In this document: positions 27,032-49,228 of the stretch, in pieces
Position numbering within the stretch: the stretch's first letter is position 1
How the letters are laid out: every line of letters starts with the position of its first letter
Assembly: GCA_963974355.1 (NCBI GenBank)
Contig: CAXBDS010000003.1
Location: forward strand, 8,299-72,298
Direction: 5' to 3'
Source: an uncultured Opitutaceae bacterium
GTDB taxonomy: Bacteria; Verrucomicrobiota; Verrucomicrobiia; Opitutales; Opitutaceae
Length of the DNA stretch: 64,000 nucleotides
Notes under the pieces: model-generated
Databases searched by the model: none
Told to the model about the DNA's origin: nothing
Seen by the model: the letters and a program-made list of their open reading frames with translations, nothing else
Program-made: the position numbers and the translations under genes

Positions 27032-27985
27032 TTAACTGCGCTTGAGGTGGTGCATCGTGATTTCACCGGGGCAGTTTAGGCGGGCCGGAACGCCACACGA
27101 ACCCGTTCCCACCGAAGTGTAGCCGTGCGCGCCAGCCGCCAACCATGGTCCGCGAATTCGCTCCGAGGGCTGTCCTTTCAACGGCACATGGAGCCACCGT
27201 CCGCCCGGCAGACAGAGCTGCCCGCCGTGCGTGTGACCACAAAGCACCAGATCAAAGCGATTCTCCGGTAGCTGGTCCGCAATTTCAGGTGAGTGCGCCA
27301 ACAGCACGATGCACGCGTCCTCGGCGATCCCGCGGGTCGCGGCAACCAAGTCATGCGTCTGGTAGAAATGCGGATCGTCGATGCCCGCGAACCACAGGCG
27401 TTCGCCGTGGCGCTCGATCGAAGCGCTTTCATTGAGCAATATCGGGAGCCCATCGCGCTCAAGCGTCGGAACCTGTTCGATGAAGTCGTGGTTTCCCAAG
27501 ATACCAAACCGCGGGCGATCCGGCAGCGATTGGAGGAGGCGAGTCATGTCCGTCAACGCGGGATGGAAATCCTCGTGCGTCGAGTTGCGGAAATCGCCCG
27601 TAAAGACGACGGCATCGTAGTCCAAGCCGGCGATCCGATCAATCACCACTTGGGTAAAATCCGGGTCAAGGTCCAGATGAAGGTCGGTAAGTTGCAGCAG
27701 TCGAAAATCCTCAAACGCCGAGGGCAGGCGCGGCAGGCGCCAGACGCGCTCCACCAAGCGCGGGTTCAGGTGATTCGACCGGGCACGGGTTGCGAGTCCG
27801 GTTGCGGCCAGACAAAATGCGACCACCGCATCCAGCGGAAAATAACGCTCCAGCTGAAACAGCCCGCTGCCTTGATGCGTAAACTGCGCCCAATGTCCGG
27901 CCTGGGTGGAGAGGCGACGCTCAAGGGCGGGCAGGCCCATGCGCGAGGCCAATGATTTGTAGGGTTCCGGAAGATTGGGGTTCAT
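27032..27985 (-). CDS. Calcineurin-like metallophosphoesterase
   Basis: TDLH, FTGDF, LGNHD, LAHSP and CGHTHGGQ motifs. Confidence 0.9.
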   Translation of the reverse strand: MNPNLPEPYKSLASRMGLPALERRLSTQAGHWAQFTHQGSGLFQLERYFPLDAVVAFCLAATGLATRARSNHLNPRLVERVWRLPRLPSAFEDFRLLQLTDLHLDLDPDFTQVVIDRIAGLDYDAVVFTGDFRNSTHEDFHPALTDMTRLLQSLPDRPRFGILGNHDFIEQVPTLERDGLPILLNESASIERHGERLWFAGIDDPHFYQTHDLVAATRGIAEDACIVLLAHSPEIADQLPENRFDLVLCGHTHGGQLCLPGGRWLHVPLKGQPSERIRGPWLAAGAHGYTSVGTGSCGVPARLNCPGEITMHHLKRS

Positions 27986-32691: not shown

Positions 32692-33558
32692 TCAGCCGCG
32701 GCCGAAGTGTTTCCAACCAGCGCGATAGCCGTCACGTTTACCAAGGCGTTGGGCCAGGCGCACCAGCGCGGCCCGGGGCCATTCGGCGCGACGACCTTGC
32801 GCCGCACACCACTGCCAGTCCTTGAGCGCATCTTTCGCGGTGCCGAGGGCGACAGTGTAGTGATAGTTGTAGTTGCGCGCCGGAGTGGGACTGGTCGCCG
32901 CAAGCGCGAAAGAGTCGCCGTAACACCGTCGGTAGGACTGGCGCGCGGTGTAGTTGTGTGAATGGATGGCGCGAGATTCCTCGGCGTAAGGCACAGCCCA
33001 TCCGGCGGCGACTAGCCGGCGGGACCACTCGTCGTCTTCGGCATAGGTAAGGTCGTCGCGAAAAGGAATCGTTTCCCACGCCGGACGATACACCAAACTG
33101 GAGACCATACTGAAAAAGTGCCCCCAGTTGACGGATTCACGCTCCGGACCGAAGCACCGGTCGTAGTCGTGAGCGAAGATCGCGTAACAGTCGGAGCGCG
33201 GCAGTTGCCGGGAAAACGCGGCGCCAGTCTTGGGTTGGGCAGTGCCGGCGGCGAGCAAGTTGCTTAACCATTGGTCATCGGCCGGGGTCGCGTCGGCGTT
33301 CAGGAAAACGACCCAGTCACCGGAGGTTTCACGCATCCCTTGATTCAACACGGCGCCAGCCACGTAACGGTCGATCGAGATCAAGCGTTCCACTTGGAGG
33401 GTGCGAAACAGCTCGACCGAGCCATCCGTCGAACCGGAGTCGATCACCGTCACCCGGGGCTTCCACGGTCCCTGTTGCCGACGGACCCCCTCGATGGTCG
33501 CTTGGGCATAGTGACCTTCGTTTTTAGAACGCATCACTATGTCGATGACGTTACTCAT
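32692..33558 (-). CDS. GT2 glycosyltransferase
   Basis: IVMRSKNE, VIDSGSTDG, FLNAD and AEDDEW motifs; ATG 33558 avoids overlap with the divergent gene. Confidence 0.88.
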   Translation of the reverse strand: MSNVIDIVMRSKNEGHYAQATIEGVRRQQGPWKPRVTVIDSGSTDGSVELFRTLQVERLISIDRYVAGAVLNQGMRETSGDWVVFLNADATPADDQWLSNLLAAGTAQPKTGAAFSRQLPRSDCYAIFAHDYDRCFGPERESVNWGHFFSMVSSLVYRPAWETIPFRDDLTYAEDDEWSRRLVAAGWAVPYAEESRAIHSHNYTARQSYRRCYGDSFALAATSPTPARNYNYHYTVALGTAKDALKDWQWCAAQGRRAEWPRAALVRLAQRLGKRDGYRAGWKHFGRG

Positions 33559-33584
33559 TTGCGCTTTAGCATCGTCATCAAACC

Positions 33585-33599
33585 GCAAATTTGAAACCA
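33585..33599 (-). promoter_or_regulatory. Candidate sigma54 (-24/-12) promoter for the GT2-GT4-flippase-H-NOX operon
   Basis: Minus strand TGG-TTTCAAAT-TTGC has exact GG-N10-GC spacing 27 nt upstream of the GT2 start, but lacks the CAC of the consensus -24 box. Confidence 0.4.
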
Positions 33600-33606
33600 A
33601 ATCGGC

Positions 33607-35247
33607 ATGGAAAGTGAGCGTTTTGTTCATGTTGTCGGCCATCAATGCCCCGATACCGACTCGGTGGTTTCTGCGGTGGTCGCGGCGCGACTCTTCAACA
33701 AAACGGATTCAGGAGCGCTTTATGAGGCTCTGATGCAAGGCGTGGCCAATTCTCAGACCGTGTGGCTGTTCGAACAAGCGGGCGTCCCGTTGCCACGCAT
33801 CCGGGCAGACGTGCGTCCCACCGTCGCCGAGGCCTGCTTGCCACCGCTTTCCGTCACGCCGGATCGACCGATGGGGGAGGCGCTCGATCTTCTTCATGAA
33901 CACGCGTTCAGTCTCGTTCCGGTCGCATCGGAGGAGGGGCGGTTTCTGGGCGCGGTTGGATTTTCGCTCCCGGAAGCACGCTACCTGACGCACTTCAACA
34001 TGGAGGATTTCCTCGGCTCTTTGGTGACGATCGAGGAGTTGGCTCGCGGCCTCGACTTGGTGGCAATGAATCCGGCCGCCACCACTTATCGTGATCCGGC
34101 GGAGTCCTCCCCCGCCGCATTCCGACTTTATCCTGGCGGAGGTCAGGTTAACGCCGGCGACCTGATCCTAACCGGTGCCAACGCCGCCGCAGTCACGTTT
34201 GCCGCCGAGGCCGGAGCATCTGCAGTCGTGTTCGCTGATTGTGCGGAGGCCGAGGTGCGGCGTTGGAGCCAAGGCGTCACCGTCCCCATCTATCGTTTCG
34301 CGGGATCGTTGATGGCGCTGGTCAATCAGCTGCCTCGCGCCATTCCGGTCGGCCGTTTGATGAGCCCATCCGTGCCGACCGTGCAGACGGAAGACGTCCT
34401 CGAAGATTTACGGCCGATTTTCGCCCGCACCGCCCATGCGTTGCCGGTTTTGGATGGAAACGGGCATTTATGCGGCATGATTTCGCGGCGAGAAGCACTG
34501 CAGCCGCCTCGACGTGGACTCGTGCTCGTCGATCACTTTGAACGCACCCAAACCGTCCGGGGCTGGGAAAATACCGAGATCCTGCAAATCATCGACCACC
34601 ACCGCGTGGGCGGATTGGAAACCGTCGAGCCTGCCCGTGTCGATTGCCGGCCCCTGGGCAGCACGGCCAGCATCTTGGCATTGCGCTACATCGAAGCCGG
34701 CATCGAGCCCGACGAAGCCGAGGCCACCTTGCTCTTGGGCGCATTGGTGGCCGACACCCTGTTGCTCACTTCACCCACGACCACCGCGAAAGATCGCGAG
34801 ATTGCCCGGCAACTCACGAAACTCAGCGGACTGGATCTGCCCACTTTCGGGCGGGAGGTGTTGGCTCGTAACGACGGCTTGGCCACGGACTCGGCCAGCG
34901 CGTTGGTCACGCGCGACCTCAAGGCATTTTCGCATGGCGAGGTCAGTTTCCTTCTCGGGCAAATCGAGACCGTGGACCTGTCGCTCCTCGACGCCTCCCG
35001 GGCCCGTGACTTGCGTAAGGCGCTGGACGAGGCACGCGGTCGGGCGGGTGCGGCCTTCGCCGTGACCATGGTGACGGATGTGCTGCGCGGCGTCAGCGCC
35101 TTCTTAATGGCCGATGCCGATCAAAGGCGAATGCTGCATCTTTTCGAGAATGCCGACCCATTGAATAACGTCGAATACGAGATGGTCTCACGAAAGAAAC
35201 AGCTGGTGCCCTTGGTGATGGCGCGGTTGGCCACCTATAAATCATGA
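33607..35247 (+). CDS. Family II Mn-dependent inorganic pyrophosphatase with CBS-DRTGG-CBS insert
   Basis: GHQCPDTDS, LVDH, IIDHH, DLKAF and SRKKQLVP motifs, with a central CBS/DRTGG-like region. Confidence 0.88.
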   Translation: MESERFVHVVGHQCPDTDSVVSAVVAARLFNKTDSGALYEALMQGVANSQTVWLFEQAGVPLPRIRADVRPTVAEACLPPLSVTPDRPMGEALDLLHEHAFSLVPVASEEGRFLGAVGFSLPEARYLTHFNMEDFLGSLVTIEELARGLDLVAMNPAATTYRDPAESSPAAFRLYPGGGQVNAGDLILTGANAAAVTFAAEAGASAVVFADCAEAEVRRWSQGVTVPIYRFAGSLMALVNQLPRAIPVGRLMSPSVPTVQTEDVLEDLRPIFARTAHALPVLDGNGHLCGMISRREALQPPRRGLVLVDHFERTQTVRGWENTEILQIIDHHRVGGLETVEPARVDCRPLGSTASILALRYIEAGIEPDEAEATLLLGALVADTLLLTSPTTTAKDREIARQLTKLSGLDLPTFGREVLARNDGLATDSASALVTRDLKAFSHGEVSFLLGQIETVDLSLLDASRARDLRKALDEARGRAGAAFAVTMVTDVLRGVSAFLMADADQRRMLHLFENADPLNNVEYEMVSRKKQLVPLVMARLATYKS

Positions 35248-40650: not shown

Positions 40651-41829
40651 CTAATCCCCTCCGCCGGAGGCCGCTCGGTCGCAGGCGGCTCGCATCACCC
40701 GATAAATCTGTTCGATGCGTTCGGGCGGTTCATCGACCGGATGACTCGTGAGCCAACACGCGCGCGAATTGGGCAAATCAGGATCGAATCCATGCATGCC
40801 CGGCACCCGACGTTGATTCATAAACGAAGGGGCGAAAATCACGCCTTCATTGAGCAGATAAAAGAGTTCTCCGTAGCGACGATCAGGGAACAGGCATCCC
40901 CAGCGCTTGAGCTCGTCGTCCGTGACGATTCGACCTTCGTTTCGTTGGCTGAGCCAGGCCTCAATCCGACTCCGCACGGACTGACCTCCAGGAAACCAGA
41001 AGCGAACCATCGTCGAGTCCCAGGCGGCAGCATAGTCTTTACCGTAACGCAGACCAAGCGCGTCGAAGTCCACCATCATGCGACTACAGCTCCGGGTGTC
41101 GGCCATGCCGTGATCGCTGAACACATGCCACCGCACCTCCGCATAGTGCGCGATCGCGATTGCGTTCAGCTCCCGCAACCACGTCTCGAGTCGCCCGAAC
41201 GCCGCGTCGACGGCTGCGCCGTTCGTCGTATGCGCATGCATGGTGGCGTCGAGTCCCGCGTTGAAAAGATAGGCCAAGCGAATTTCACCAGCCCGCAAGT
41301 CGCGCGCCAACGCCTCGATATTGGCCGGATCACCCGCTCGCCAATCAGACCGCACCCAAGGCAGACCCGATGCTTTCCAGTGTTCAAAAATGGCGGGTTG
41401 TCCCCCCATGATTCCGCCAGGTTCGTAGAGGTCACGTTTCTCGGTATAGTCCAGCTGGGGCAGGCGCTTGAAAGGTGTGCTATAGAGCTGAAAATATCCC
41501 GTATAGCCCTGTCGGCGCGCGACCCATCGACTGATCCGATTGCGCACCCGGTGGTGCGCCGCGACAGTTTCCGGCAGCCAGCTCAACCACCGCGCCCAGC
41601 GAAAGGGTGAGCGCGGTGGATCGTAGGCGAAAAACGAAAAATGCCCGTGTTGATATGGCAGGGTGCCGGTAAGGATGCTCGGATCGCAGGTGCAGGAGTA
41701 ACCGAACAACGTGTCGCAAGGCTGACGATACGGCAGAAGATCCGAGAGGAACTGACGACGTTGGGCCAGTTCCCAACCGAGGGCATCGACGAAGACGAAG
41801 AGATCGATTGACGGGGTGAGAGGTTTCAT
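40651..41829 (-). CDS. Alkaline phosphatase superfamily (NPP/phosphodiesterase-like) protein, no signal peptide
   Basis: FVDALG, GYSCTCDPSILTG, LDATMH, FSDHGM and GMHG metal-binding motifs. Confidence 0.8.
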   Translation of the reverse strand: MKPLTPSIDLFVFVDALGWELAQRRQFLSDLLPYRQPCDTLFGYSCTCDPSILTGTLPYQHGHFSFFAYDPPRSPFRWARWLSWLPETVAAHHRVRNRISRWVARRQGYTGYFQLYSTPFKRLPQLDYTEKRDLYEPGGIMGGQPAIFEHWKASGLPWVRSDWRAGDPANIEALARDLRAGEIRLAYLFNAGLDATMHAHTTNGAAVDAAFGRLETWLRELNAIAIAHYAEVRWHVFSDHGMADTRSCSRMMVDFDALGLRYGKDYAAAWDSTMVRFWFPGGQSVRSRIEAWLSQRNEGRIVTDDELKRWGCLFPDRRYGELFYLLNEGVIFAPSFMNQRRVPGMHGFDPDLPNSRACWLTSHPVDEPPERIEQIYRVMRAACDRAASGGGD

Positions 41830-42458
41830 CGCTGGGCGAGGGAGCGCTCAATCCGCTTGCGCAGCCGGGCAGGGAAGCGGAGGTCGCTCTCCTGGTTCCA
41901 AATCAGATCGGCATGCCGACGAGAGGGCTCGACATAACGCTCATGACCCGGTCGGGCCGCCGAAGCGTAACGAGAAATGACCTCAGCGACCGAATATCCG
42001 CGCTCCGTCGTGTCTCTTTGAATACGACGGATCAGTCGGAGATCAGCCGGCGTATGGACGAAGATTTTGAGGTCGAGCACGCGGCGCAGTTTCGCATCGG
42101 CGAGCACAAACAGTCCTTCGATCACCACCACCGAGGCCGGAGGCACGAGCGTGGTTTTCCTCGCCCGACGGTAACGGGCGAAATCGTAGTGCGGCATGGC
42201 GACCTCGTTGCCGCGGCGCAGGGAACGAACCTGTTTGAGGAGGAGCGAGGTCTCGAATGCCGCCGGGCAATCAAAGTCGATTTTCCGTCGCGCCGCGGCC
42301 GTGAGGGTGGGATGGTCGCGATAGTAGCAATCATGCGACAAGATCACGCAGCGTTCCGCCCCGAGCTCCCCCGCCAACTGGGCGGCCAAACGGCTCTTGC
42401 CCGAGGCGGTGCCTCCGGCAATCCCCACCACCAGAAGAGGACTCGCGGCGCTTTTCAC
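41826..42458 (-). CDS. udk: Uridine/cytidine kinase family protein (Tyr-type, predicted cytidine-preferring)
   Basis: GIAGGTASGKS, HDCYY, YDFARY, VIEG, RLIRRIQRD...ERG and YVEPS...ADLI motifs. Confidence 0.88.
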   Translation of the reverse strand: MKSAASPLLVVGIAGGTASGKSRLAAQLAGELGAERCVILSHDCYYRDHPTLTAAARRKIDFDCPAAFETSLLLKQVRSLRRGNEVAMPHYDFARYRRARKTTLVPPASVVVIEGLFVLADAKLRRVLDLKIFVHTPADLRLIRRIQRDTTERGYSVAEVISRYASAARPGHERYVEPSRRHADLIWNQESDLRFPARLRKRIERSLAQR

Positions 42459-42844
42459 TCGGTGGGGTGCGCCGCGAGCAATTCGCGCACGCGCGCGGCC
42501 AGTTGGGCGGGGCTGAAAGGTTTGCGAAAGAACGCCTGCACGCCAAGCGCCCGTCCCTCGGCTTCGATATGGGTTTCGCCCGCACCAGTGAGGAAAATGA
42601 TCGGGAGCAGGCGGTGGGCCGAATCTTGTCGAATCTCAGCCACCGCCGTGAGGCCGTCGACGTCCTTCATGTGCACGTCAAAAATGCCCAGCGCGACCGG
42701 TCGGGTCCGGATAATTTCCAACGCATCCAGGCCGCTGGTTGCGGTGATGATGGTCGCATCGATCGTGCGAAGGGTGAAGCCGACCAAACGCAGCATATGC
42801 GGTTCGTCGTCGACGATAAGGATGGTGGGGAGCTGCTTGGTCAT
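42455..42844 (-). CDS. Single-domain response regulator (REC)
   Basis: ILIVDDE, IFDVHM, FLTG and RKPF motifs; ATGA overlaps on both sides. Confidence 0.9.
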   Translation of the reverse strand: MTKQLPTILIVDDEPHMLRLVGFTLRTIDATIITATSGLDALEIIRTRPVALGIFDVHMKDVDGLTAVAEIRQDSAHRLLPIIFLTGAGETHIEAEGRALGVQAFFRKPFSPAQLAARVRELLAAHPTE

Positions 42845-44559
42845 CGGCAAAGAGAGGCCACCAACACGGTGCGGTCGTCGGCGATCGTGGCGGGGTCGAG
42901 TTTCAGCGCAATTGGATCCAGCAGGGCGGCGATGAACTCCGGCGGATTCAGTTCGAAACGGGATACCGCGAACTTCAGATAGATTTCCGGTCCGAGCATC
43001 AGCTCTCCATCGGGGCCGGGCAGTTCGTAACAACCATCGGTGTAAAGGACGAGTCGATCCCCCGTATCCATCGGTAAAGGCAATGCCTCATACTGGGTGT
43101 CGGGGAGGATCCCGAGTGGCACGTTTCCACCGCTAGGTTCAATGAAACGTCCATCCGGGCGAAGAATGGCGGGAGCGCAGTGCCCGGCATTCGAGAAGCT
43201 CGGGAGCGCCCCCGGCGTCGGCGGTAGAATCACCAAAATCGCGGTGATGAACATTCCGAGGCGCACGAGATCGGGAAATAATTGGCGGTTGAGGTCGCTT
43301 AGAATTACACTCGGAGACGATTCCACGGCTGAGAGGGCCCGCAACGAGCTTCGTAGCATGGCCGCAAGCAAAGCTGCGGGCACGCCTTTGCCCATCACGT
43401 CCGCCACGAGCACCATCAGCGTGCCATCATGCAAGGTCACCACATCGAAGTAGTCTCCGCCAACCTCCCGCGCCGGGCGACATTCGCCGTGAACCCACCA
43501 CCGCTCGGGGGGCGGAAAAACATCCGGCAGCAACGAGCGTTGGATACCGGACGCGACCTTGATCTCCTGTTCGAGGCGAAGCTGCTGATTACGTTCCTGC
43601 CAAAGGTTGTCCGTCGCTTTCGCGATGCCCACAAAGTCCGCCACGGCTTGGAGCAACTCCACCTCGCCACCAGAAAACGACTGCCGTTGCGCGCCGCGCA
43701 CCACCACCAGCGTCCCTAGTGTCTTGCCTCCAAACTCCACCGGCAGGACGCACAGATGACACGTATTGGCCATGGCGGCGAGAGGGTCGCCATCGGGGAG
43801 CCGATCAACGCCGCCAACCAGTGGGCGACCATCACGCACGCAGACACTCTCCGCAAAATCGCCTGACAACGGGAGCTCGGCCGGCAGGCCGATATCCAAA
43901 CCGAGCGCGTGAAGTTGCAAGGTGTCGCCGACGGTAAATCGCACAAACAGCGAATCGTGCAGGAGCATCGTCTCCAACCGCTCCCGGACCTGAGCCAGCA
44001 GCTGGTCAAAGGTCGAGCTGGTGGCGAGCAGGCCGGTGAAATGAGTCAGGCAAAGCAGCGTCTCAAAGCTGTTGGCCAAATCCTCCGTCAGGCGACCCAT
44101 GTCGTTTTCGGCGTCGGCGGCGGATTCGATACTCATGCCCGGCTGCCGCTCCACGTTCCAGCGGAGAGTCAAAGTGTGGCCGCCATCCGTATTGGAATGC
44201 TCCCAGCCGTCGGTGTTGGAATCGATAATGAAACCACCTCGGCCTCCTTCGGCGAGCGGATCTTCGGGCAGCTCAGCCCAGTTCGCCGGAGGCTGAAAAT
44301 TGCCGGGATCGCAGACCGTGACAACGACGTGATCCGACGCGACCCGCACCGAAAGCTGCACGGTCGTTTCCGGGTTTCCGGCGCAACCATGTTCGATCGC
44401 ATTGTTAACCGCCTCCACCAAGGGCAGCTCGATTCCGGAAAGTTTCTTTGCATCGACCCCGTGGATACGGCACCAGGCCAGCACACGCTTCACGGCCGGC
44501 CGGATCGACGTGAGACGCGGGGGAAGGGCGAGCTGCAACGCCTCGTCGAGTTCGTTCAT
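42841..44559 (-). CDS. RsbW-type Ser kinase / GAF-like / SpoIIE (PP2C) phosphatase fusion
   Basis: EAVNNAIEHG, CDPG and EGGRG (HATPase_c_2); central GAF-like region; VGGDYFD, VADVMGKG, YTDG and DDRT (PP2C). Confidence 0.9.
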   Translation of the reverse strand: MNELDEALQLALPPRLTSIRPAVKRVLAWCRIHGVDAKKLSGIELPLVEAVNNAIEHGCAGNPETTVQLSVRVASDHVVVTVCDPGNFQPPANWAELPEDPLAEGGRGGFIIDSNTDGWEHSNTDGGHTLTLRWNVERQPGMSIESAADAENDMGRLTEDLANSFETLLCLTHFTGLLATSSTFDQLLAQVRERLETMLLHDSLFVRFTVGDTLQLHALGLDIGLPAELPLSGDFAESVCVRDGRPLVGGVDRLPDGDPLAAMANTCHLCVLPVEFGGKTLGTLVVVRGAQRQSFSGGEVELLQAVADFVGIAKATDNLWQERNQQLRLEQEIKVASGIQRSLLPDVFPPPERWWVHGECRPAREVGGDYFDVVTLHDGTLMVLVADVMGKGVPAALLAAMLRSSLRALSAVESSPSVILSDLNRQLFPDLVRLGMFITAILVILPPTPGALPSFSNAGHCAPAILRPDGRFIEPSGGNVPLGILPDTQYEALPLPMDTGDRLVLYTDGCYELPGPDGELMLGPEIYLKFAVSRFELNPPEFIAALLDPIALKLDPATIADDRTVLVASLCR

Positions 44560-45761
44560 GGCGCGGGATGAGTCAGGCAAAGTTTAAGCAAGGAACGCCG
44601 GACCAGGCGGTCATTTTGCGGCAAGGCGGCTTGGTAAAGCGCGTGGGCCAACTCGTCGGGTTCCTCCGGCGTATGCGAACCGTGAAGATCGGCGAGCGAG
44701 AAAACGCCCGGCGGTGTGTGTGCGAGCAGCGTCCGCGTTTCCTCGGGGACCTGCGGAGCTATTTCACTCCGGGGTAAAATCCCGACCAACCTAAGGCGAC
44801 CCGCGACCACCGCGCCGAGCCAGCGAGCTCGGCGGGCCAGCAACGAACCTCGAGACCCCGTGCTCAAACGAAGCGTTCCGCCTCCCGGCAGTAAAACCTC
44901 CCGTGATATCGCCGCCCCCGCACCCAACGCCAAGAGTTGCGCCGGCAACCAGAGCAGCAGCGCCCACGCGCGTTCCCGCATCGGGGTAGACTGCGGCTGC
45001 TGCTGCATCGCAGCCGCGATAAAATCGTCGGTCAGGTCGGCCCGACCTCCGCTCATCGGGTCGAGCAACGTGGCCCCCAGTAACAGCTTATTGTGCACAT
45101 CCAAATGCGCGCCCACGAAGGTGCCTCCCGCGACCAAAGCATGTTGCAAATGGACATCGGAGCTGAGGACGCAGCCGGGCCCAACCAATGCACCGGGTCC
45201 GATCGTGCAGCCCGACTCGATCAAGGTGCCGGCCCCGATCCAATACGGCGGCACCAGCTTAATGCCGGGGGCCAGCGTGACGCGCGGACCGAGCCAGCCT
45301 TGCGGCTCGCGCTGCGTATCGAGATGAACACGTTCCGGATCACGCTTCGCCAGCCAAGCGAGGTTGAGCGCAAGCCACCATCGCACCAACGATGCGCCGT
45401 CCATCGGCGAGGCGTCGCCGGGATCGCATGCCGGCATGCGATCCATCATCTCGGCAACCAGGCCCAGCGGCGGCGACACGGGCAGTAGGCTGAGTTCTAC
45501 GGACCAATAGGCGCCGCCTTCGAGGGCCGCCCGCACCGCCGCCGGACGGTCCGGGCAATAGAGGGTGACCTGCTTGCAGCCCTGCTGCACAGCATGGTCA
45601 AGCCAGTGGGCGGCCAGCGATTGATTTCCGACTTCCCACAAAATAGGCGGGAGATCACGACGCGCTAGCGAATCGAGCACGCTCCAATCCGGCGCGACGA
45701 GCACCAATGCGGGCGCAGGCGATGAGGCGACCGCGACATCTGCGGAGGCAGTCGAACTCAC
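44556..45761 (-). CDS. Degenerate NTP-transferase + left-handed beta-helix + degenerate sugar-transferase fusion
   Basis: PILWEVGNQSLAAHWLDHA, hexapeptide repeats (WIGAGTLIESGCTIGPGALVGPGCVL), C-terminal VVAGRLRLVGILPR; GTGA start overlap inferred. Confidence 0.65.
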   Translation of the reverse strand: MSSTASADVAVASSPAPALVLVAPDWSVLDSLARRDLPPILWEVGNQSLAAHWLDHAVQQGCKQVTLYCPDRPAAVRAALEGGAYWSVELSLLPVSPPLGLVAEMMDRMPACDPGDASPMDGASLVRWWLALNLAWLAKRDPERVHLDTQREPQGWLGPRVTLAPGIKLVPPYWIGAGTLIESGCTIGPGALVGPGCVLSSDVHLQHALVAGGTFVGAHLDVHNKLLLGATLLDPMSGGRADLTDDFIAAAMQQQPQSTPMRERAWALLLWLPAQLLALGAGAAISREVLLPGGGTLRLSTGSRGSLLARRARWLGAVVAGRLRLVGILPRSEIAPQVPEETRTLLAHTPPGVFSLADLHGSHTPEEPDELAHALYQAALPQNDRLVRRSLLKLCLTHPAP

Positions 45762-46474
45762 ATCGCGCCTTTCCCCAGCAACACCGCTGGCACCGTCATC
45801 ACGAGTAACTTGAGATCCAGCCACACGCTGGAGGATTGGATATAGGCCACGTCGAGCCGGACCTGACCGGCGAAGTCGATGTCACTGCGTCCGCCAACTT
45901 GCCAGAAGCAGGTAAGGCCCGGTTGGGCCAGCAGACGCTGGCGATCCTCCGGCGTATAGAGCGCCACTTCGCGCGGCACGGGCGGTCGCGGCCCGACCAA
46001 GGACATATCACCGCGAAACACATTCCAAAACTGCGGAAGCTCATCGATGGAGAATTTGCGAATGAATTTCCCCACGCGAGTGATACGCGGGTCATCCTTC
46101 ATCTTGAAGGTGACACCGCCCTGCATCTGATTTTGCGCAAGCAGCTTGTCCTTCACTTGGTCGGCGTTAGGAATCATCGAGCGGAATTTCCACATCTTGA
46201 ACAGGCGCCCGCGGTAACCGACGCGTTGTTGCCCGAAGAACAGAGCGCCGGGTCCTTCCAGTCGAATGGCGAGAGACGTGGCGGCAAAGATGGGCGTGAG
46301 CGCGACGAGCGCGCAAAACGAGACCACCAGATCCAGCGCCCGCTTCAGCACGCGGGTGGCGCCGAGGGTGATGTTCCACAGCCACCGTTTACGCGAGGCA
46401 CGCCAACGCAGCCGGGCGCGGCCAAGCGGCGTGCCGGCGTGGCTCCAATAGGCAACGATGTCCTTTTCAGTCAT
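45758..46474 (-). CDS. Priming phosphoglycosyl transferase (Bac_transf / sugar transferase)
   Basis: KRALDL, RVGYRGRLFKMWKFRSM, DDPRITRVGKFIRKFSIDELPQ and MSLVGPRP motifs. Confidence 0.95.
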   Translation of the reverse strand: MTEKDIVAYWSHAGTPLGRARLRWRASRKRWLWNITLGATRVLKRALDLVVSFCALVALTPIFAATSLAIRLEGPGALFFGQQRVGYRGRLFKMWKFRSMIPNADQVKDKLLAQNQMQGGVTFKMKDDPRITRVGKFIRKFSIDELPQFWNVFRGDMSLVGPRPPVPREVALYTPEDRQRLLAQPGLTCFWQVGGRSDIDFAGQVRLDVAYIQSSSVWLDLKLLVMTVPAVLLGKGAM

Positions 46475-47679
46475 GCGGAGTCGGATTCGGCGTTCGCGAG
46501 GGGCGTTTCAGCGACCGCCAGTCCGCCCAAGGTGCGTGTGAGTCGCTCGAGATAGTCCTCAAAGTCGTAGTGTTTGTTCACATACGTTCGGCCTTGGGCG
46601 CCAAGGCGGCGAGCCAACGATTTGTCGGCCAGCAAACCATCGATCGCCCGTGCAAATGCCGGCACATCACCCCATGGCACCAACCGGCCGGTTTCGCCAT
46701 CGTGCAACCAATCCGGGATGCCACCGGCATCGAACGCCACCACGGGCAGTCCGTAACGCATCACTTCAAGCCCGATCGTGGCGATGGGCTCGGGCCAGAC
46801 TGAGGAAACCGCCACCACGGAAGCATCCCGGTAATAGCCCTTCAATTCCTCTTGGGGAATGAAACCGGGGAAACGCACCCGATCCTGCAGCCCGAGTTCA
46901 CGACAGAGCTTTTCGCAAGCCGCCTGATGATTGCCTGAGCCAAGAATCACCGCTTCAAATGGACGCTCGAGGCGGGCGAGGGCGCGGAGCAGTAGATCCA
47001 CGCCTTTACCGCGGATGATTTGGCCTGCGTAAAGAATAAGATTTCGCTCGGAAAAGCTCGATTCGAGCGGATCTCCCGGACGCGGCACCGGCGGGAAGAT
47101 TTCGATTTTTTCAGACGCGAAGCCGTTGATCTCGAGCTCGTGCTGCATGTAGTGCGTGACCACAAACATTCGGTCAAAACGCCGGGTGAGTGCCAGCTCC
47201 CTGAGCTTGTCGAAGTAAGACACCCACTTGATCGGGAAACCGCCGGAGCGGTCACGCTTAATCGGGGCGAGGCAGGGGAAAACGCAATAGCCGGAGGCCG
47301 GTCGATGGCATACTTTGCGGGTCAACGGATGGTAACGATAGCTCCGCAAACAATAGATGTCGTGGTCGTGCACCATACGGGCAAGCGGAAGGTCCGATTC
47401 GACCAATGCCTCCAACGTCGGCAGATGATCCCACTTATGCACGTAGGCGACCTGGGGCGAAAATCGAGTGCGCACCGTAGCGAGGTCACATTCCGCTTCG
47501 TAGAAGACATGTTCACCGAACAGCGCCCGCCACTTTTCCTCGCCCTTTCCCGTGGCTCGGCGAGTCCAGAGCCCCACGGTGACCCCGCGTCGTTGAAGCT
47601 CGGTGGCTGTGATCAGCACATTAGCCTCGGCGCCGCCCAGGTTTCCGAATGACTCATGAACATAGAGCAGGCGGAACAT
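46471..47679 (-). CDS. GT4 glycosyltransferase
   Basis: GGAE, YAGQIIRGKG and WPEPIATIGLEVM (EX7E) motifs. Confidence 0.92.
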   Translation of the reverse strand: MFRLLYVHESFGNLGGAEANVLITATELQRRGVTVGLWTRRATGKGEEKWRALFGEHVFYEAECDLATVRTRFSPQVAYVHKWDHLPTLEALVESDLPLARMVHDHDIYCLRSYRYHPLTRKVCHRPASGYCVFPCLAPIKRDRSGGFPIKWVSYFDKLRELALTRRFDRMFVVTHYMQHELEINGFASEKIEIFPPVPRPGDPLESSFSERNLILYAGQIIRGKGVDLLLRALARLERPFEAVILGSGNHQAACEKLCRELGLQDRVRFPGFIPQEELKGYYRDASVVAVSSVWPEPIATIGLEVMRYGLPVVAFDAGGIPDWLHDGETGRLVPWGDVPAFARAIDGLLADKSLARRLGAQGRTYVNKHYDFEDYLERLTRTLGGLAVAETPLANAESDSA

Positions 47680-47787
47680 CTTGAACCGAACTCTGACGAC
47701 TGCGCGCTTCGGTTACAACCGGGCAAATCGCGAATTGCAAAAAATCTGCTTCGCAAATCCGGTGGAGCAACGATAGGAAGTTTGCTC

Positions 47788-48102
47788 ATGAGTCTCGTAA
47801 TTCAGACAGCGCTCACTGACGGTTGCCTCAAAGTTGTCCCCACGGTGTCGCGACTGGACGCGGCGGTCGCCCGTGACTTCAAAGCGGAAATTGAGAAAGC
47901 GTGGACCGCCGGGGTTTCGTCCGTGGAAATCGATATGACGGCCGTCGAGTTCGTCGACAGTTCGGGCGTCGGGGCACTGTTAAGCGTGTATCGCAAACTT
48001 CCGCCGGGGGCAGGCGTGACCCGCCTCGTCGGCATTCGTCCCGGCGTGCTCGCGGTGCTGGAGCTGCTCCGCCTCCATCGCGTATTCGAACTGGGCAACT
48101 AA
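47788..48102 (+). CDS. STAS anti-sigma-factor antagonist (SpoIIAA/RsbV-like)
   Basis: RLDAAVA, IDMTAVEFVDSSGVGALL and VLELLRLHRVF motifs. Confidence 0.9.
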   Translation: MSLVIQTALTDGCLKVVPTVSRLDAAVARDFKAEIEKAWTAGVSSVEIDMTAVEFVDSSGVGALLSVYRKLPPGAGVTRLVGIRPGVLAVLELLRLHRVFELGN

Positions 48103-48103
48103 G

Positions 48104-49228
48104 ATGATGTCGCCCGCGGATTCAGGGCGCTATTTCGTCGATGACGAACCGGCTTTGGCCGCGAAGTTGGATCAATTTCTGTCGACTTTGGCGACCGATC
48201 TCGGCGCTCAACCGTGGCGCGAAGATGTCGCTGCGTTGGTTTTGGCCGGCGGATACGGTCGCGGTGAGGGAGGCGTTTTCCGCGCGAGCGAAAAGGCTGA
48301 AGCAGACCTCTACAACGACCTCGAATTTTTCCTCTTTTTGAAAAGCGGTGCCTCCACCCCGCCAGCCGCGGCGTGGTGCGAGCGATGGGAACGGGATGGC
48401 ACCGTCAAGTTGGGGATCGACGTCGAGTTCAAGCGGGATGCCGCCACCGGGCTGCAGCACGGTGCCCCGACGATGTTTTTGTATGACTTATTGCAGGGGC
48501 ATCGCGTCATTTGGGGGGATCCCGGTTGTCTCGCGCGTGCTCCGGCGCGTTTGCGTGATCCTGCCGCAATCCCGGCGGAAGAAGCGACTCGACTGCTTTT
48601 CAATCGTGGCAGCGGGTTGTGGTTTGCCCAAATGAAATTGGCCGCCGATGCGATCGACGAACTCGGTTTCGTTGAGCGAAACCAGCAAAAAGCGAAGTTG
48701 GCGATGGGCGATGCGGTGTTGGCGTTGAGCGGCCGGCATCACGCTATGTGCGAGGAACGCGACCGACGCATCGCAAGCGGCGGGTTCGCCACCCCGCCGG
48801 ACTGGGCCAAGTTGGTCGCATGGCACGACGAAGGCACGGCGTTCAAACTGCGTCCCCGCCATCGGGCGACCGGACTCGAACACCTCAAAGCGAGCCAGAC
48901 CGCATTGGTCGCGGCATGGTTGAAAACGTTTTTATGGGTGGAAGGGCGACGTCTGGACCACGTCTTTACTCAACCGCTCGATTACGTGGCCTGGGACCGT
49001 CGCTTATTTCCCAACCGTGCTCGTTGGCGCAACGTCGCGGTGCATGCGCGTGATCGATTCAAACGCGGCGAAATGTTGCGCGCGGTCACTGACTATCCGC
49101 GAGCCACATTGCAACGCGCGTTGGTCGCCGCGTTGGTCGATGGCACCGCGGCGGGAGCCCGTTGCATGGGGGTAACGGCCACTGATTTCGACACCACTTA
49201 CGCCCGCTGGTGGGCACGCTACAACTAG
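48104..49228 (+). CDS. Pol-beta superfamily nucleotidyltransferase-like protein of unknown function
   Basis: LVLAGGYGRGEG followed by YNDLEF and DVEF acidic motifs, then a helical domain; 1 nt after the STAS stop. Confidence 0.6.
   Translation: MMSPADSGRYFVDDEPALAAKLDQFLSTLATDLGAQPWREDVAALVLAGGYGRGEGGVFRASEKAEADLYNDLEFFLFLKSGASTPPAAAWCERWERDGTVKLGIDVEFKRDAATGLQHGAPTMFLYDLLQGHRVIWGDPGCLARAPARLRDPAAIPAEEATRLLFNRGSGLWFAQMKLAADAIDELGFVERNQQKAKLAMGDAVLALSGRHHAMCEERDRRIASGGFATPPDWAKLVAWHDEGTAFKLRPRHRATGLEHLKASQTALVAAWLKTFLWVEGRRLDHVFTQPLDYVAWDRRLFPNRARWRNVAVHARDRFKRGEMLRAVTDYPRATLQRALVAALVDGTAAGARCMGVTATDFDTTYARWWARYN

Follow-up and report, generated by a model that had tools for sequence, protein, structure and literature searches.

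What do a predicted Pol-beta nucleotidyltransferase (NTase) and a predicted cytoplasmic enzyme of the NPP fold do in a Wzx/Wzy-type slime-polysaccharide locus? The question is raised by a 64,000-nucleotide stretch of DNA (the window, meaning the whole stretch that was analysed) from an uncultured Opitutaceae bacterium, in which the two genes lie in divergent units. The locus also includes WecG–STAS glycosyltransferases and a CBS-DHH pyrophosphatase-like gene. In the HenR / All4160 system of Anabaena, a polysaccharide glycosyltransferase carries a STAS domain that is the target of a kinase and a PP2C phosphatase (PMC13555669), and a switch of this type explains the STAS, kinase–GAF–PP2C and WecG–STAS parts of the locus; it has no NTase or NPP component, and the pair is therefore unaccounted for by that switch.

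Gene content of the locus

All of the features named in the initial annotation are present in the window (Table 1), and the architecture of the locus is conserved among related loci. The minus-strand operon runs from 47679 to 40651 with the GT4 gene first and the NPP gene last, the start of the latter being overlapped by Udk by 4 nt. Between the divergent units lies an intergenic region of 108 bp (47680–47787), taking the ATG at 47788 as the realistic start of the STAS gene rather than 47656, and no sigma-70-like promoter was found in it, a search which is uninformative for this phylum. The STAS protein carries a DSSG phospho-site motif, and the HATPase_c_2–GAF–PP2C protein is the partner-switch enzyme for STAS domains.

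Table 1. Genes of the window considered here, with the matches on which their assignment is based.
Feature	Position	Strand	Evidence
GT2 glycosyltransferase	32692-33645	-	PF00535
Phosphodiest-family NPP-fold protein, 392 aa	40651-41829	-	PF01663, 32.8 bits vs cut-off 23
Uridine/cytidine kinase (Udk)	41826-42458	-	NF004018, 215 bits vs cut-off 180
Receiver-only response regulator (RR)	42455-~42844	-	PF00072
HATPase_c_2-GAF-SpoIIE: fused RsbW-type kinase, GAF and PP2C phosphatase	42841-~44559	-	PF13581, PF01590, PF07228
LbH/GMPPB-like protein, degenerate nucleotidyltransferase N-terminus	44556-~45761	-	Hexapep, LbH_EIF2B
Small PGT (Bac_transf), polyprenyl-phosphate sugar-phosphate transferase, priming	45758-46474	-	PF02397, 219 bits; TIGR03025
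GT4 glycosyltransferase, first gene of the minus-strand operon	46471-47679	-	PF00534, PF13692
Stand-alone STAS protein, 104 aa	47788-48102	+	PF01740
Predicted Pol-beta nucleotidyltransferase (NTase), 374 aa	48104-49228	+	AlphaFold/Foldseek; motifs

Udk is the only PRK-family gene of the genome, where it is single copy, and it is absent from 21/31 genomes of the family; for this bacterial family it does not count among the housekeeping genes, although it sits in the operon. Its association with the NTase–NPP pair is weak, as it occurs in 18 of 84 related loci, where it was recruited at several different positions, and without the NTase in three genomes of the family. The initial annotation had suggested that the transferred nucleotide was perhaps CMP, and this hint lost its footing: the Tyr at the position of UCK2 His117 is confined to the Udk of the window, with His found there in 13 of the 18 further Udk homologues that are linked to the cluster and whose motif could be read.

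Predicted folds of the two enzymes

No Pfam or NCBIfam family matches the NTase. The motifs noted in the initial annotation, GGYGRGEG and NDLE, were located at residues 48–55 and 70–73, ahead of a C-terminal helical domain, and G48–G56 (GGYGRGEGG), D71, E73, E107 and K109 do not vary among 33 homologues with 45–68% identity. In some more distant orthologues and in the fused family described below, DxE is replaced by DxD; DxE is shared with the best structural match, for which PDB titles include ‘E52D mutant of ANT-4'’. The AF2 model (pLDDT 95.2) found kanamycin NTase (1kny; E 2e-4, prob 1.0), AadA, 3c18, HalB and MntA as the top Foldseek matches, confirming at the level of the model the anticipated Pol-beta fold and placing the NTase with the kanamycin-NTase/AadA type. 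Similarity to CdnC and OAS on the CD-NTase side is weak (prob 0.08–0.16, TM ~0.2), and the modelled fold is ANT-like rather than CD-NTase-like. More than 514 species genomes encode a relative of the NTase and the locus architecture is conserved, and for these reasons the observation is not due to chance.

ANT(4') (1kny, 6nmk) and AadA ANT(3'')(9) (5g4a, 5luh), the best Foldseek matches (prob 1.0), share with the NTase the order of a Pol-beta domain followed by a helical substrate-binding domain, as well as the G-rich loop, the D-x-E pair and a third carboxylate, and transfer NMP to hydroxyls of amino-sugar compounds. They differ in sequence (10–13% identity, TM 0.35–0.50 and no sequence-profile match), in having a helical domain shorter by ~100 residues, and in their context, which is antibiotic resistance rather than polysaccharide assembly, with no counterpart of the NPP or GT2 partners.

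The NPP model (pLDDT 94.1) matches best with Xac NPP (7mw8/2gsn; E 4e-16, TM 0.61–0.66), ENPP6/1/3/5/7 and PhnA, which agrees with the NPP-family assignment made earlier from the sequence. The full set of metal ligands which that assignment had noted (D15, D194, H198, D239, H240 and H346) is invariant and all six align with ENPP6, while Ser45 (GYS), kept in 71/71 orthologues, aligns with the nucleophile position of ENPP7 at the N-terminus of the same helix as in Xac NPP and the ENPPs. There is no signal peptide, as also noted earlier; in the AF2 model residues 5–14 make up the first beta-strand of the core, with ligand D15 at its end. We therefore regard the protein as a cytoplasmic, phosphodiesterase-like enzyme of the NPP fold and alkaline-phosphatase superfamily, with Ser45 the predicted nucleophile. 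In contrast, Xac NPP and the ENPPs are not cytoplasmic, share only 12–20% identity with it, use Thr and not Ser as the nucleophile, and are neither paired nor fused with an NTase; the fused relatives of the window's enzyme have no such nucleophile at all.

Inheritance of the pair and its glycosyltransferase partner

Among 201 high-quality genomes of the phylum, each at least 90% complete, the NTase was found in 44 and the NPP in 43, and as these overlap in 43 genomes the NPP never occurs alone. Where the NPP was >10 kb distant or missing from the fetched locus, it was nonetheless found in 10/11 NTase genomes. In 12 of 14 loci retrieved from distant families the two genes lie side by side in the same orientation (the other two show one reverse and one divergent order), and several of these adjacent pairs have overlapping stop and start codons. 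Finally, clustering at 90% identity leaves at least 161 clusters of NPP–NTase fusion proteins (~780–830 aa) from several phyla, including Betaproteobacteria, Anaerolineales and WOR-3. The A1 and A2 profiles verified both domains of the fusions, nearly all of which keep G[SG]FGRGE, ND[YF]D and DHGM. The fused NPP domain, however, lacks the canonical Ser/Thr nucleophile; it may catalyse a different reaction from the split enzyme or do no more than bind substrate. The co-occurrence that the initial annotation had proposed as a check was thus observed, and because it is joined by translationally coupled adjacency and fusion in a single polypeptide the link is the stronger: the NTase and NPP are a conserved functional pair, specifically linked to one another.

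The alternative is that the two are functionally unrelated, being independent passengers of one mobile polysaccharide cluster. The whole cluster is indeed accessory (it is absent from a complete genome of the same genus and from most of the family) and its other genes likewise co-occur broadly. However, both genes are kept in about a third of genomes even though they are >25 kb apart or on separate contigs, and in distant lineages they are adjacent with overlapping codons while the rest of the cluster is elsewhere. Because of the fusions found across several phyla this reading is close to refuted, and we find it scarcely credible.

The constant neighbour or fusion partner of the pair is a GT2 glycosyltransferase and not STAS. 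A GT2 gene is directly upstream of the NTase in 16–18 loci, GT2–NTase fusion proteins occur (P0305, P0381 and P0295), and a GT2 of one orthogroup (190–374 bits) lies directly downstream of every fused NPP–NTase gene examined. The GT2 of the window scores 112 bits against the NTase-adjoining GT2 of locus L096 and 207 bits against the corresponding part of P0305; it is an orthologue of the adjacent and fused GT2s of other lineages, and is likely to complete the module as its third component. All of the contexts examined are clusters for the assembly of polysaccharides or glycoconjugates. Loci L114 and L115 run from wzm through wzt (with Wzt_C), NPP–NTase and GT2 to a GT2/GT4 polymerase; the genes overlap at their ends, and none of those called is a methyltransferase or a kinase. 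Other fused genes lie in flagellar regions with FliW–CsrA–flagellin, MotAB, NeuB and Maf-like genes. No kinase genes were found beside the fused form in the O-antigen ABC-transporter and flagellar glycosylation clusters examined.

These contexts bear on two regulatory readings, both of which are weakened. In the first, which builds on the signalling nucleotide suggested in the initial annotation, the NTase would make a linear or cyclic nucleotide under STAS/REC control which the NPP would degrade, the signal controlling the glycosyltransferases. According to PDB titles NPPs degrade cGAMP, Ap4A and oligonucleotides; PorX, which combines REC with a phosphodiesterase of the alkaline-phosphatase superfamily, acts on signals that are oligonucleotides (PMC9757075), diguanylate cyclases of Pseudomonas are switched on by STAS-like proteins (PMC8457831), and HalB and, weakly, CdnC and OAS are in the Foldseek list. 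However, the CD-NTase/OAS matches fall far below those to ANT, PADLOC gave no matches, no receptor candidate is apparent, and the genes occur within glycosyltransferase operons, fused to GT2, or after wzt in O-antigen clusters without signalling genes. The ANT-like fold, GT2 partner and glycan clusters make a signalling nucleotide very unlikely.

In the second, the NTase would add NMP to a STAS, receiver, glycosyltransferase or glycan end and the NPP would remove it, switching polysaccharide synthesis. The STAS stop is 1 nt ahead of the NTase start in the window, a coupling echoed by a small STAS ORF directly upstream of the NTase in 52/77 related loci, and the receiver-only RR adjoins the NPP gene in most related loci of both types, the second type being compact NTase–NPP–RR loci. 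Pairing and fusion are expected of opposing activities, and STAS–glycosyltransferase phospho-switches exist (PMC13555669). The NTase shares its GGYGRGE loop exactly with GlnD, the PII uridylyltransferase / uridylyl-removing enzyme, in which an NTase is also combined with a phosphohydrolase acting on the same phosphodiester, but the similarity is confined to 14 aligned columns (prob 23%), the remover is an HD domain and not an NPP, the target is a protein, and there is no glycosyltransferase context. Furthermore, the STAS domains are already served by the kinase/PP2C pair, no STAS gene was detected beside the pair in the compact loci or in any of seven fused contexts examined, the NTase fold is closest to small-molecule ANT enzymes, and NPP enzymes are not known to act as protein de-nucleotidylases. 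Of the original writer/eraser idea, the functional link and the intact catalytic residues stand, but the regulatory role fits poorly with a GT2 partner in place of STAS and with a fused NPP domain without its nucleophile, and we consider it quite unlikely.

A possible role in glycan tailoring

The best explanation, and one to which we give slightly better than even chances, is that the GT2, NTase and NPP form a module which equips a glycan with a decoration or cap that contains phosphate. Beyond functional coupling and the association with glycans, the features of this module are ones that we infer. The ANT-like NTase would spend an NTP, releasing PPi, to attach a nucleotidyl-phosphate to a hydroxyl group on the sugar that GT2 had added (or its acceptor might be a small phospho-substituent precursor), and the NPP-fold enzyme would next resolve the nucleoside phosphodiester so made, leaving a phosphate or phosphodiester-linked decoration. 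If the NPP step frees a nucleoside, the Udk of the operon could recycle it. Two consecutive biosynthetic steps are thus favoured over opposed activities, and a phosphate-linked glycan decoration is most likely when compared with a regulatory on/off switch. We note that the option in the initial annotation of adding and removing NMP on a sugar overlaps with glycan tailoring.

In favour of tailoring, the closest folds of the NTase, ANT(4') and AadA, nucleotidylate sugar hydroxyls, and catalytic residues are invariant in both NTase and NPP. Against it, opposing writer/eraser pairs, among them GlnD (NTase and HD) and SpoT, are just as typically co-inherited and fused, the positions of STAS and receiver genes would also fit a regulatory target, the nucleophile is missing from the fused NPP domain, the tie to Udk is weak, the contexts of the fused family that were examined number only eight, and Pol-beta NTases have no known part in glycan phosphorylation.

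A different biosynthetic role, which we judge unlikely, would be precursor supply, with the NPP a sugar-phosphate phosphomutase and the NTase an unconventional sugar-1-phosphate nucleotidylyltransferase providing an NDP-sugar donor for the partner GT2. Mutase, pyrophosphorylase and glycosyltransferase make up a classic three-gene logic and are often fused; several fused proteins have a precomputed match to PF01676 (Metalloenzyme: phosphopentomutase/iPGM) beside PF01663, the split NPP has the Ser nucleophile needed by a mutase, in one genome (L110:6201-8519) the NTase domain is joined in a single protein to a homologue of the LbH/GMPPB-like pseudo-pyrophosphorylase, and the CBS-DHH and Udk genes lie within the locus. 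However, structural comparison places the enzyme beside NPPs, ENPP6 and PhnA and not beside DeoB or iPGM, the fused family lacks the nucleophile required of a phosphomutase, the closest NTase folds move NMP to hydroxyls and not to phosphates, and the known sugar-1-phosphate nucleotidylyltransferases all adopt another fold.

Two known systems offer parallels for a tailoring module. WbdD, the chain terminator of the O9a O-antigen, is a methyltransferase and kinase (PMC3482155), and the fused gene of L114 and L115 occupies the slot of WbdD-type terminators (PMC3482155; PMC9445017), between wzt (with Wzt_C) and the polymerising glycosyltransferases. Some fusions also have an N-terminal SAM methyltransferase, and both proteins would modify a hydroxyl of a sugar with a phosphate-based group, capping by NPP–NTase being our proposal. 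Unlike WbdD, the NPP–NTase folds are entirely different, with no kinase domain or coiled coil, and the Wzx/Wzy-type locus of the window needs no cap. In the flagellin glycan pathways of C. difficile (CD0240–CD0244) and P. aeruginosa (PA1088–PA1091), a GT2, a nucleotidyltransferase, an enzyme handling a phospho-group (phosphotransferase) and a methyltransferase produce a phosphodiester-linked sugar decoration (PMC10714395, PMC11833859), and several fused NPP–NTase genes similarly sit in flagellar regions. The enzymes of those pathways are a Rossmann-type cytidylyltransferase, a TagF-like transferase and a HAD-type phosphotransferase, none of them homologous to the proteins of the window.

As a tailoring module, GT2–NTase–NPP would serve different ends in different clusters. 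In those with ABC transporters the decoration would be a non-reducing-end cap read by Wzt_C, and in the Wzx/Wzy-type locus of the window it would be a decoration of the repeat unit. In the Verrucomicrobiota, the module would have been placed under the STAS / kinase–PP2C / receiver phospho-switch which also governs the WecG–STAS glycosyltransferases.

Folds and active sites of the NTase and NPP

The NTase gene belongs to a two-gene plus-strand unit and the NPP gene to a seven-gene minus-strand operon, with 108 bp between the two (coordinates are collected in the table below). They lie in a Wzx/Wzy-type polysaccharide locus which also includes a flippase, GT2 and GT4 genes, two Poly_export genes, tandem WecG-STAS-STAS genes, three hybrid kinases, a FIST gene and a sigma-54 activator. 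The names of homologues assign the organism to the Opitutaceae (Verrucomicrobiota). The NTase (374 aa) starts one base past the stop codon of the STAS gene, and an alternative longer STAS ORF from 47656 would overlap the start of the GT4 gene. A scan for sigma-70 promoters in the divergent region found none and was uninformative.

Features of the window and of related loci (L numbers) discussed in the text
Feature	Position	Strand	Remarks
STAS protein	start plausibly ATG 47788	+	
NTase	48104-49228	+	
GT4	46471-47679	-	
Bac_transf priming transferase, small	45758-46474	-	
LbH/GMPPB-like protein (LbH)	44556-~45761	-	degenerate nucleotide-binding N-terminus
HATPase_c_2-GAF-SpoIIE fusion	42841-~44559	-	
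Receiver-only response regulator (RR)	42455-~42844	-	
Uridine kinase (Udk)	41826-42458	-	NF004018, 215 bits, exceeds cut-off
'Phosphodiest' protein (NPP)	40651-41829	-	PF01663
GT2	32692-33645		
DHH-CBS-DHHA2 protein	33607-35247	+	
Large protein, 659 aa	54519-56498	-	no Pfam match
Large protein, 446 aa	36584-37924	+	no Pfam match
Calcineurin-like metallophosphoesterase	27032-27985	-	at locus edge
RR with C-terminal extension, compact locus	L096:7675-8352	-	225 aa
LbH-NTase fusion	L110:6201-8519	+	772 aa
REC-PP2C-HATPase_c_2 (HsbR-like)	L110:4304-6094	+	upstream of LbH-NTase fusion
Fused NPP-NTase	L111:6597-8984	-	
Fused NPP-NTase	L112:5047-7533	+	
wzt(Wzt_C)/fused NPP-NTase/GT2 stretch	L114:6912-12263		gene ends overlap
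wzt(Wzt_C)/fused NPP-NTase/GT2 stretch	L115:1655-7114		gene ends overlap

The Pol-beta fold that the initial annotation proposed for the NTase was recovered by a fold search, and its other computable points (motifs, metal ligands and the absence of a signal peptide from the NPP) hold as well. The AlphaFold model (pLDDT 95.2, pTM 0.91) has the kanamycin nucleotidyltransferase ANT(4') (1kny) as its top Foldseek match in the PDB (E 2.2e-4, prob 1.00), followed by AadA, the 3c18 NTase-like protein, Hailong HalB and the MntA antitoxins. The sequence LAGGYGRGEGG (residues 45-56) is invariant in 33 NTase sequences and includes the hG[GS] loop of the Pol-beta superfamily, which is modelled between strand 41-47 and helix 48-52. 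D71 and E73, which open strand 72-78, and E107, within strand 106-112, are also invariant and provide the [DE]x[DE] motif and third carboxylate. In the predicted structure the G-loop follows beta1, and beta2 carries D71/E73 and beta3 carries E107, an arrangement which is the signature of a Pol-beta nucleotidyltransferase. The segments kept across the 33 homologues (45-68% identity) are L44-G56, L68-Y-N-D71-x-E73-F, E107 and K109, and the conserved polar residues of the C-terminal half are E159, R162, N166, R167, R191, K195, D202, H240, K247, H252 and D329-YPR, the first seven of which are invariant and candidates for an acceptor pocket in the helical domain. The DxE motif, earlier remarked upon as replacing DxD, is indeed present; it is nonetheless normal for this branch, since ANT(4') has DxE as well (PDB entry 'E52D mutant'), and DxD is found in some distant split orthologues (those with NTase and NPP as separate genes) and in the fused family described below. 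The closest structural relatives, the ANT-type enzymes, transfer NMP onto sugar hydroxyls.

The NTase has no Pfam match even at E<=10, none in NCBIfam and none in PADLOC, and sequence and profile searches against the PDB returned nothing meaningful. Although Escherichia coli GlnD has the same GGYGRGE loop, membership of the GlnD/GlnE type was rejected, as hhalign aligned only the 14 columns of this loop (prob 22.8%). A CD-NTase or OAS-type synthase was rejected on Foldseek probabilities of 0.08-0.16 and TM scores of ~0.2 to CdnC and OAS, together with the lack of a PADLOC match, and we regard the proposal that the NTase and NPP make and degrade a second messenger as highly improbable.

The NPP (392 aa) scores 32.8 bits against PF01663 (gathering cut-off 23), its homologues have precomputed matches to the same family, and 33 sequences share 56-81% identity. 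The two-metal ligands D15, D194/H198, D239/H240 and H346 are invariant and align with the ENPP6 motifs, and the model (pLDDT 94.1) matches a Xanthomonas NPP (E 4e-16, TM 0.61-0.66), ENPP6, ENPP1/3/5/7 and phosphonoacetate hydrolase. Ser45 (GYS) is found in 71/71 split-family NPPs, where it caps the N-terminus of helix 45-54 and aligns with the position of the nucleophilic Thr of ENPP7 in a segment of the alignment that scores weakly. Unlike characterised NPPs, which are secreted or ecto-located, the window NPP has no signal peptide, because residues 5-14 form a core strand, and its homologues begin at the same position. Enzymes of the NPP fold split phosphodiesters of nucleosides or alcohols, and either side may keep the phosphate; ENPP6, for example, yields phosphocholine.

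Pairing and fusion of the NTase and NPP

The NTase and NPP are a pair beyond their common membership of a cluster. The initial annotation had linked them as a possible writer and eraser, and the pairing itself is borne out by a survey of 201 genomes from the phylum (>=90% complete), where the NTase was found in 44, the NPP in 43 and both in 43, such that every genome with the NPP (43/43) also carries the NTase. The cluster is accessory, with both genes absent from a complete genome of the same genus and from most of the family, and about one-third of carriers have retained both genes despite a separation of >25 kb or a location on different contigs. We consider coincidence to be an extremely improbable explanation of these patterns. 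In related loci from distant families (L095-L108) the NTase gene adjoins the NPP gene, most commonly in the order GT4-GT2-NTase-NPP-RR and often with stop/start overlaps of 1-4 nt. The LbH protein was tried as a cluster-wide control for co-occurrence, and proved too noisy because both single-sequence and profile searches caught unrelated LbH proteins; however, a 1.8 Mb genome from the same order (G194) has a clear LbH orthologue (E 4.5e-112) without either NTase or NPP, so that LbH and the pair are not strictly linked.

Two genomes from the window's own family (G221 and G233) encode a single ORF of ~800 aa with an N-terminal NPP and a C-terminal NTase, which scores E 7e-45 with our NPP profile and E 2e-20 with our NTase profile. 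This fused architecture (P0388-P0507, ~780-830 aa) is labelled in databases only as 'alkaline phosphatase family protein' and was found with full-length coverage in at least 161 clusters at 90% identity, including proteins labelled as Betaproteobacteria, Anaerolineales (Chloroflexota) and WOR-3, among others. Both domains were verified in 10/10 fused proteins tested. The motifs G[SG]FGRGE, ND[YF]D and DHGM are kept in nearly all fused proteins, and the helical-domain motifs LLxNRxxG, NxxxKxxLAxGD and FKLxP are common to the split and fused NTases. All metal ligands are kept in the fused NPP domain, in which GFVPRAAYFGG takes the place of the GYSCTCDPSILTG of the split enzyme, and it is therefore without the canonical Ser/Thr nucleophile. 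An additional SAM methyltransferase is found at the N-terminus of two fused proteins. We also note a different fusion in G205 (locus L110), in which an LbH/GMPPB-like protein and an NTase domain share one ORF downstream of an HsbR-like gene.

The NTase family is large (2,078 representative clusters at 50% identity, E<=1e-3) and present in roughly a fifth of the genomes sampled from the phylum. Its cultured carriers include Luteolibacter pohnpeiensis KCTC 22041, Cerasicoccus maritimus NBRC 105382 and Prosthecobacter fluviatilis KACC 12649. Pfam, NCBIfam, PADLOC and the literature searched contain no description of either the family or its pairing with the NPP.

The GT2 partner, glycan contexts and regulatory genes

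A GT2 glycosyltransferase is the constant partner of the pair. It is encoded directly upstream of the NTase in 16-18 loci and immediately downstream of every fused NPP-NTase gene examined, and six of these downstream GT2s fall into a single tight orthogroup that spans phyla (190-374 bits). P0305 and P0381 are GT2-NTase fusions, and in P0295 a GT2 is attached to the NTase helical domain with no catalytic domain; all three may be genuine or may reflect errors of gene calling or assembly. Sequence similarity places the window GT2 in the orthogroup of NTase-adjacent and fused GT2s, with scores of 112 bits against the L096 GT2 that neighbours the NTase and 207 bits against the GT2 portion of P0305. 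We think it rather unlikely that the NTase and NPP act as a mutase/pyrophosphorylase pair which supplies the donor for this GT2.

The fused genes of a betaproteobacterial MAG (L114) and an Anaerolineales MAG (L115) are found in clusters of wzm, wzt(+Wzt_C), NPP-NTase, GT2 and a GT2/GT4 polymerase, with no methyltransferase or kinase among the called genes. The Wzt_C of ABC-transporter pathways recognises glycans whose non-reducing end has been chemically modified; in E. coli O9a WbdD introduces this modification, phosphorylating the terminal mannose and then methylating the phosphate (PMC3482155, PMC9445017). In L114 and L115 the fused gene lies where an O-antigen chain terminator would be expected. 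This linkage with wzm and wzt(Wzt_C) is seen for the fused relatives in L114 and L115, and is absent from the Wzx/Wzy locus of the window and from flagellar contexts. Other fused genes are found in flagellar regions near FliW-CsrA-flagellin, MotAB, NeuB/CMP-synthetase or Maf-like genes. The flagellin glycans of Clostridioides difficile and Pseudomonas aeruginosa carry phosphodiester-linked substituents which are added by GT2, nucleotidyltransferase, phosphotransferase and methyltransferase enzymes (PMC10714395, PMC11833859), although the folds of these enzymes are unrelated to those of the NTase and NPP.

A small STAS ORF lies directly 5' of the NTase in 52/77 loci, and Prosthecobacter-type loci have the STAS gene together with the kinase-PP2C gene instead; no STAS gene was detected adjoining the NTase in L095-L108, and neither a STAS nor a kinase-PP2C gene was found in the seven fused-gene contexts examined. 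When the fused kinase-GAF-PP2C was searched for in compact-type genomes only PP2C-domain matches were returned, and in several of these genomes one such match lies beside an LbH match on another contig or >20 kb from the pair. Both locus types have a receiver-only RR gene beside the NPP gene. A PorX-type regulator joining REC and PglZ/AlkP domains was considered and rejected, as here the RR and NPP are separate genes, there is no PglZ match in Pfam and only the adjacency is conserved. In the compact loci, the RR downstream of the NPP in L096 consists of a receiver and ~95 C-terminal residues without assignment. HenR/All4160, a switch acting on a STAS-bearing glycosyltransferase, provides an analogue for the STAS, kinase-PP2C and WecG-STAS part of the locus (PMC13555669). 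We read the STAS/REC layer in the Verrucomicrobiota as regulation added onto the module and not as its core function, and find it improbable that the NTase and NPP work in a genuine writer/eraser cycle whose target is STAS, REC, a glycosyltransferase or the end of the glycan.

Udk is the sole PRK-family gene in the genome and 21/31 family genomes have none, and it is therefore not a housekeeping gene in this family; pyrimidine nucleoside salvage seems to have come in here with the polysaccharide cluster. Udk was found in 18/84 related loci in several positions, often adjoining the NPP gene, but it is not a strict member of the module as three family genomes have Udk without the NTase. The earlier suggestion of CMP as the transferred nucleotide was rejected: the Tyr at the specificity residue which would suggest a preference for cytidine is unique to the window Udk, with 18 other readable cluster-linked homologues having His (13), Ser (4) or Lys (1). 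The presence of Udk is compatible, in a weak sense, with the release of a nucleoside by the module.

Four further proteins of the locus may be noted here. The DHH-CBS-DHHA2 protein (a CBS-type family II pyrophosphatase or nanoRNase-like) is encoded within the polysaccharide locus and has homologues <=10 kb from the NTase in seven other loci; it could remove PPi produced by nucleotidyl transfer. The 659-aa protein is kept beside Poly_export genes in ~30 related loci and is possibly a chain-length or polymerase component, and a 446-aa protein likewise has no Pfam match. Homologues of the calcineurin-like metallophosphoesterase are found near the NTase in four other loci.

A GT2-NTase-NPP module for glycan assembly

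The GT2, NTase and NPP constitute a conserved module dedicated to glycan assembly. We lean towards consecutive action by the three enzymes, and the simplest scheme for their chemistry, as we infer it, is as follows. The GT2 would add a sugar, which the NTase would then nucleotidylate, or the NTase would activate a phospho-substituent, after which the NPP would resolve the phosphodiester and leave a phosphate or phosphodiester-linked group. In the Wzm/Wzt_C clusters the group left may serve as a cap, and in the window's Wzx/Wzy locus it may decorate the repeat unit. The variant of this scheme in which the sugar is nucleotidylated and then trimmed is in our estimation unlikely.

Phosphate-linked caps and decorations set chain length, export and antigenicity in bacterial surface glycans. 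The machineries known for this task rely on kinases (WbdD), on Kennedy-type cytidylyltransferases combined with TagF- or LicD-type transferases, or on lipid-derived donors (EptA, LtaS). The logic of the module is alike, but a Pol-beta NTase, an NPP-fold enzyme and a dedicated GT2 represent different enzyme folds. It is a speculative proposal, to which we attach a low likelihood, that the pair writes and possibly rewrites a phosphate-based mark on the growing glycan independently of a kinase. The NTase would cap a sugar hydroxyl with a nucleotide, and the NPP would either trim this to a phosphate, with the freed nucleoside recycled by Udk, or remove the nucleotide again; the mark might act in ABC-transporter clusters as an export and chain-length signal read by Wzt_C, and in the Verrucomicrobiota the step might be gated by the STAS/REC phospho-switch. 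If true, this would amount to a new enzymatic route to glycan capping, with possibly the first nucleotidylated polysaccharide intermediate. Once assigned, the chemistry of the GT2-NTase-NPP module would provide an annotation for thousands of genes, would indicate what the STAS/REC switch controls in Verrucomicrobial slime loci, and may account for cargo recognition by Wzt_C-type transporters where a cluster has no recognisable terminator.
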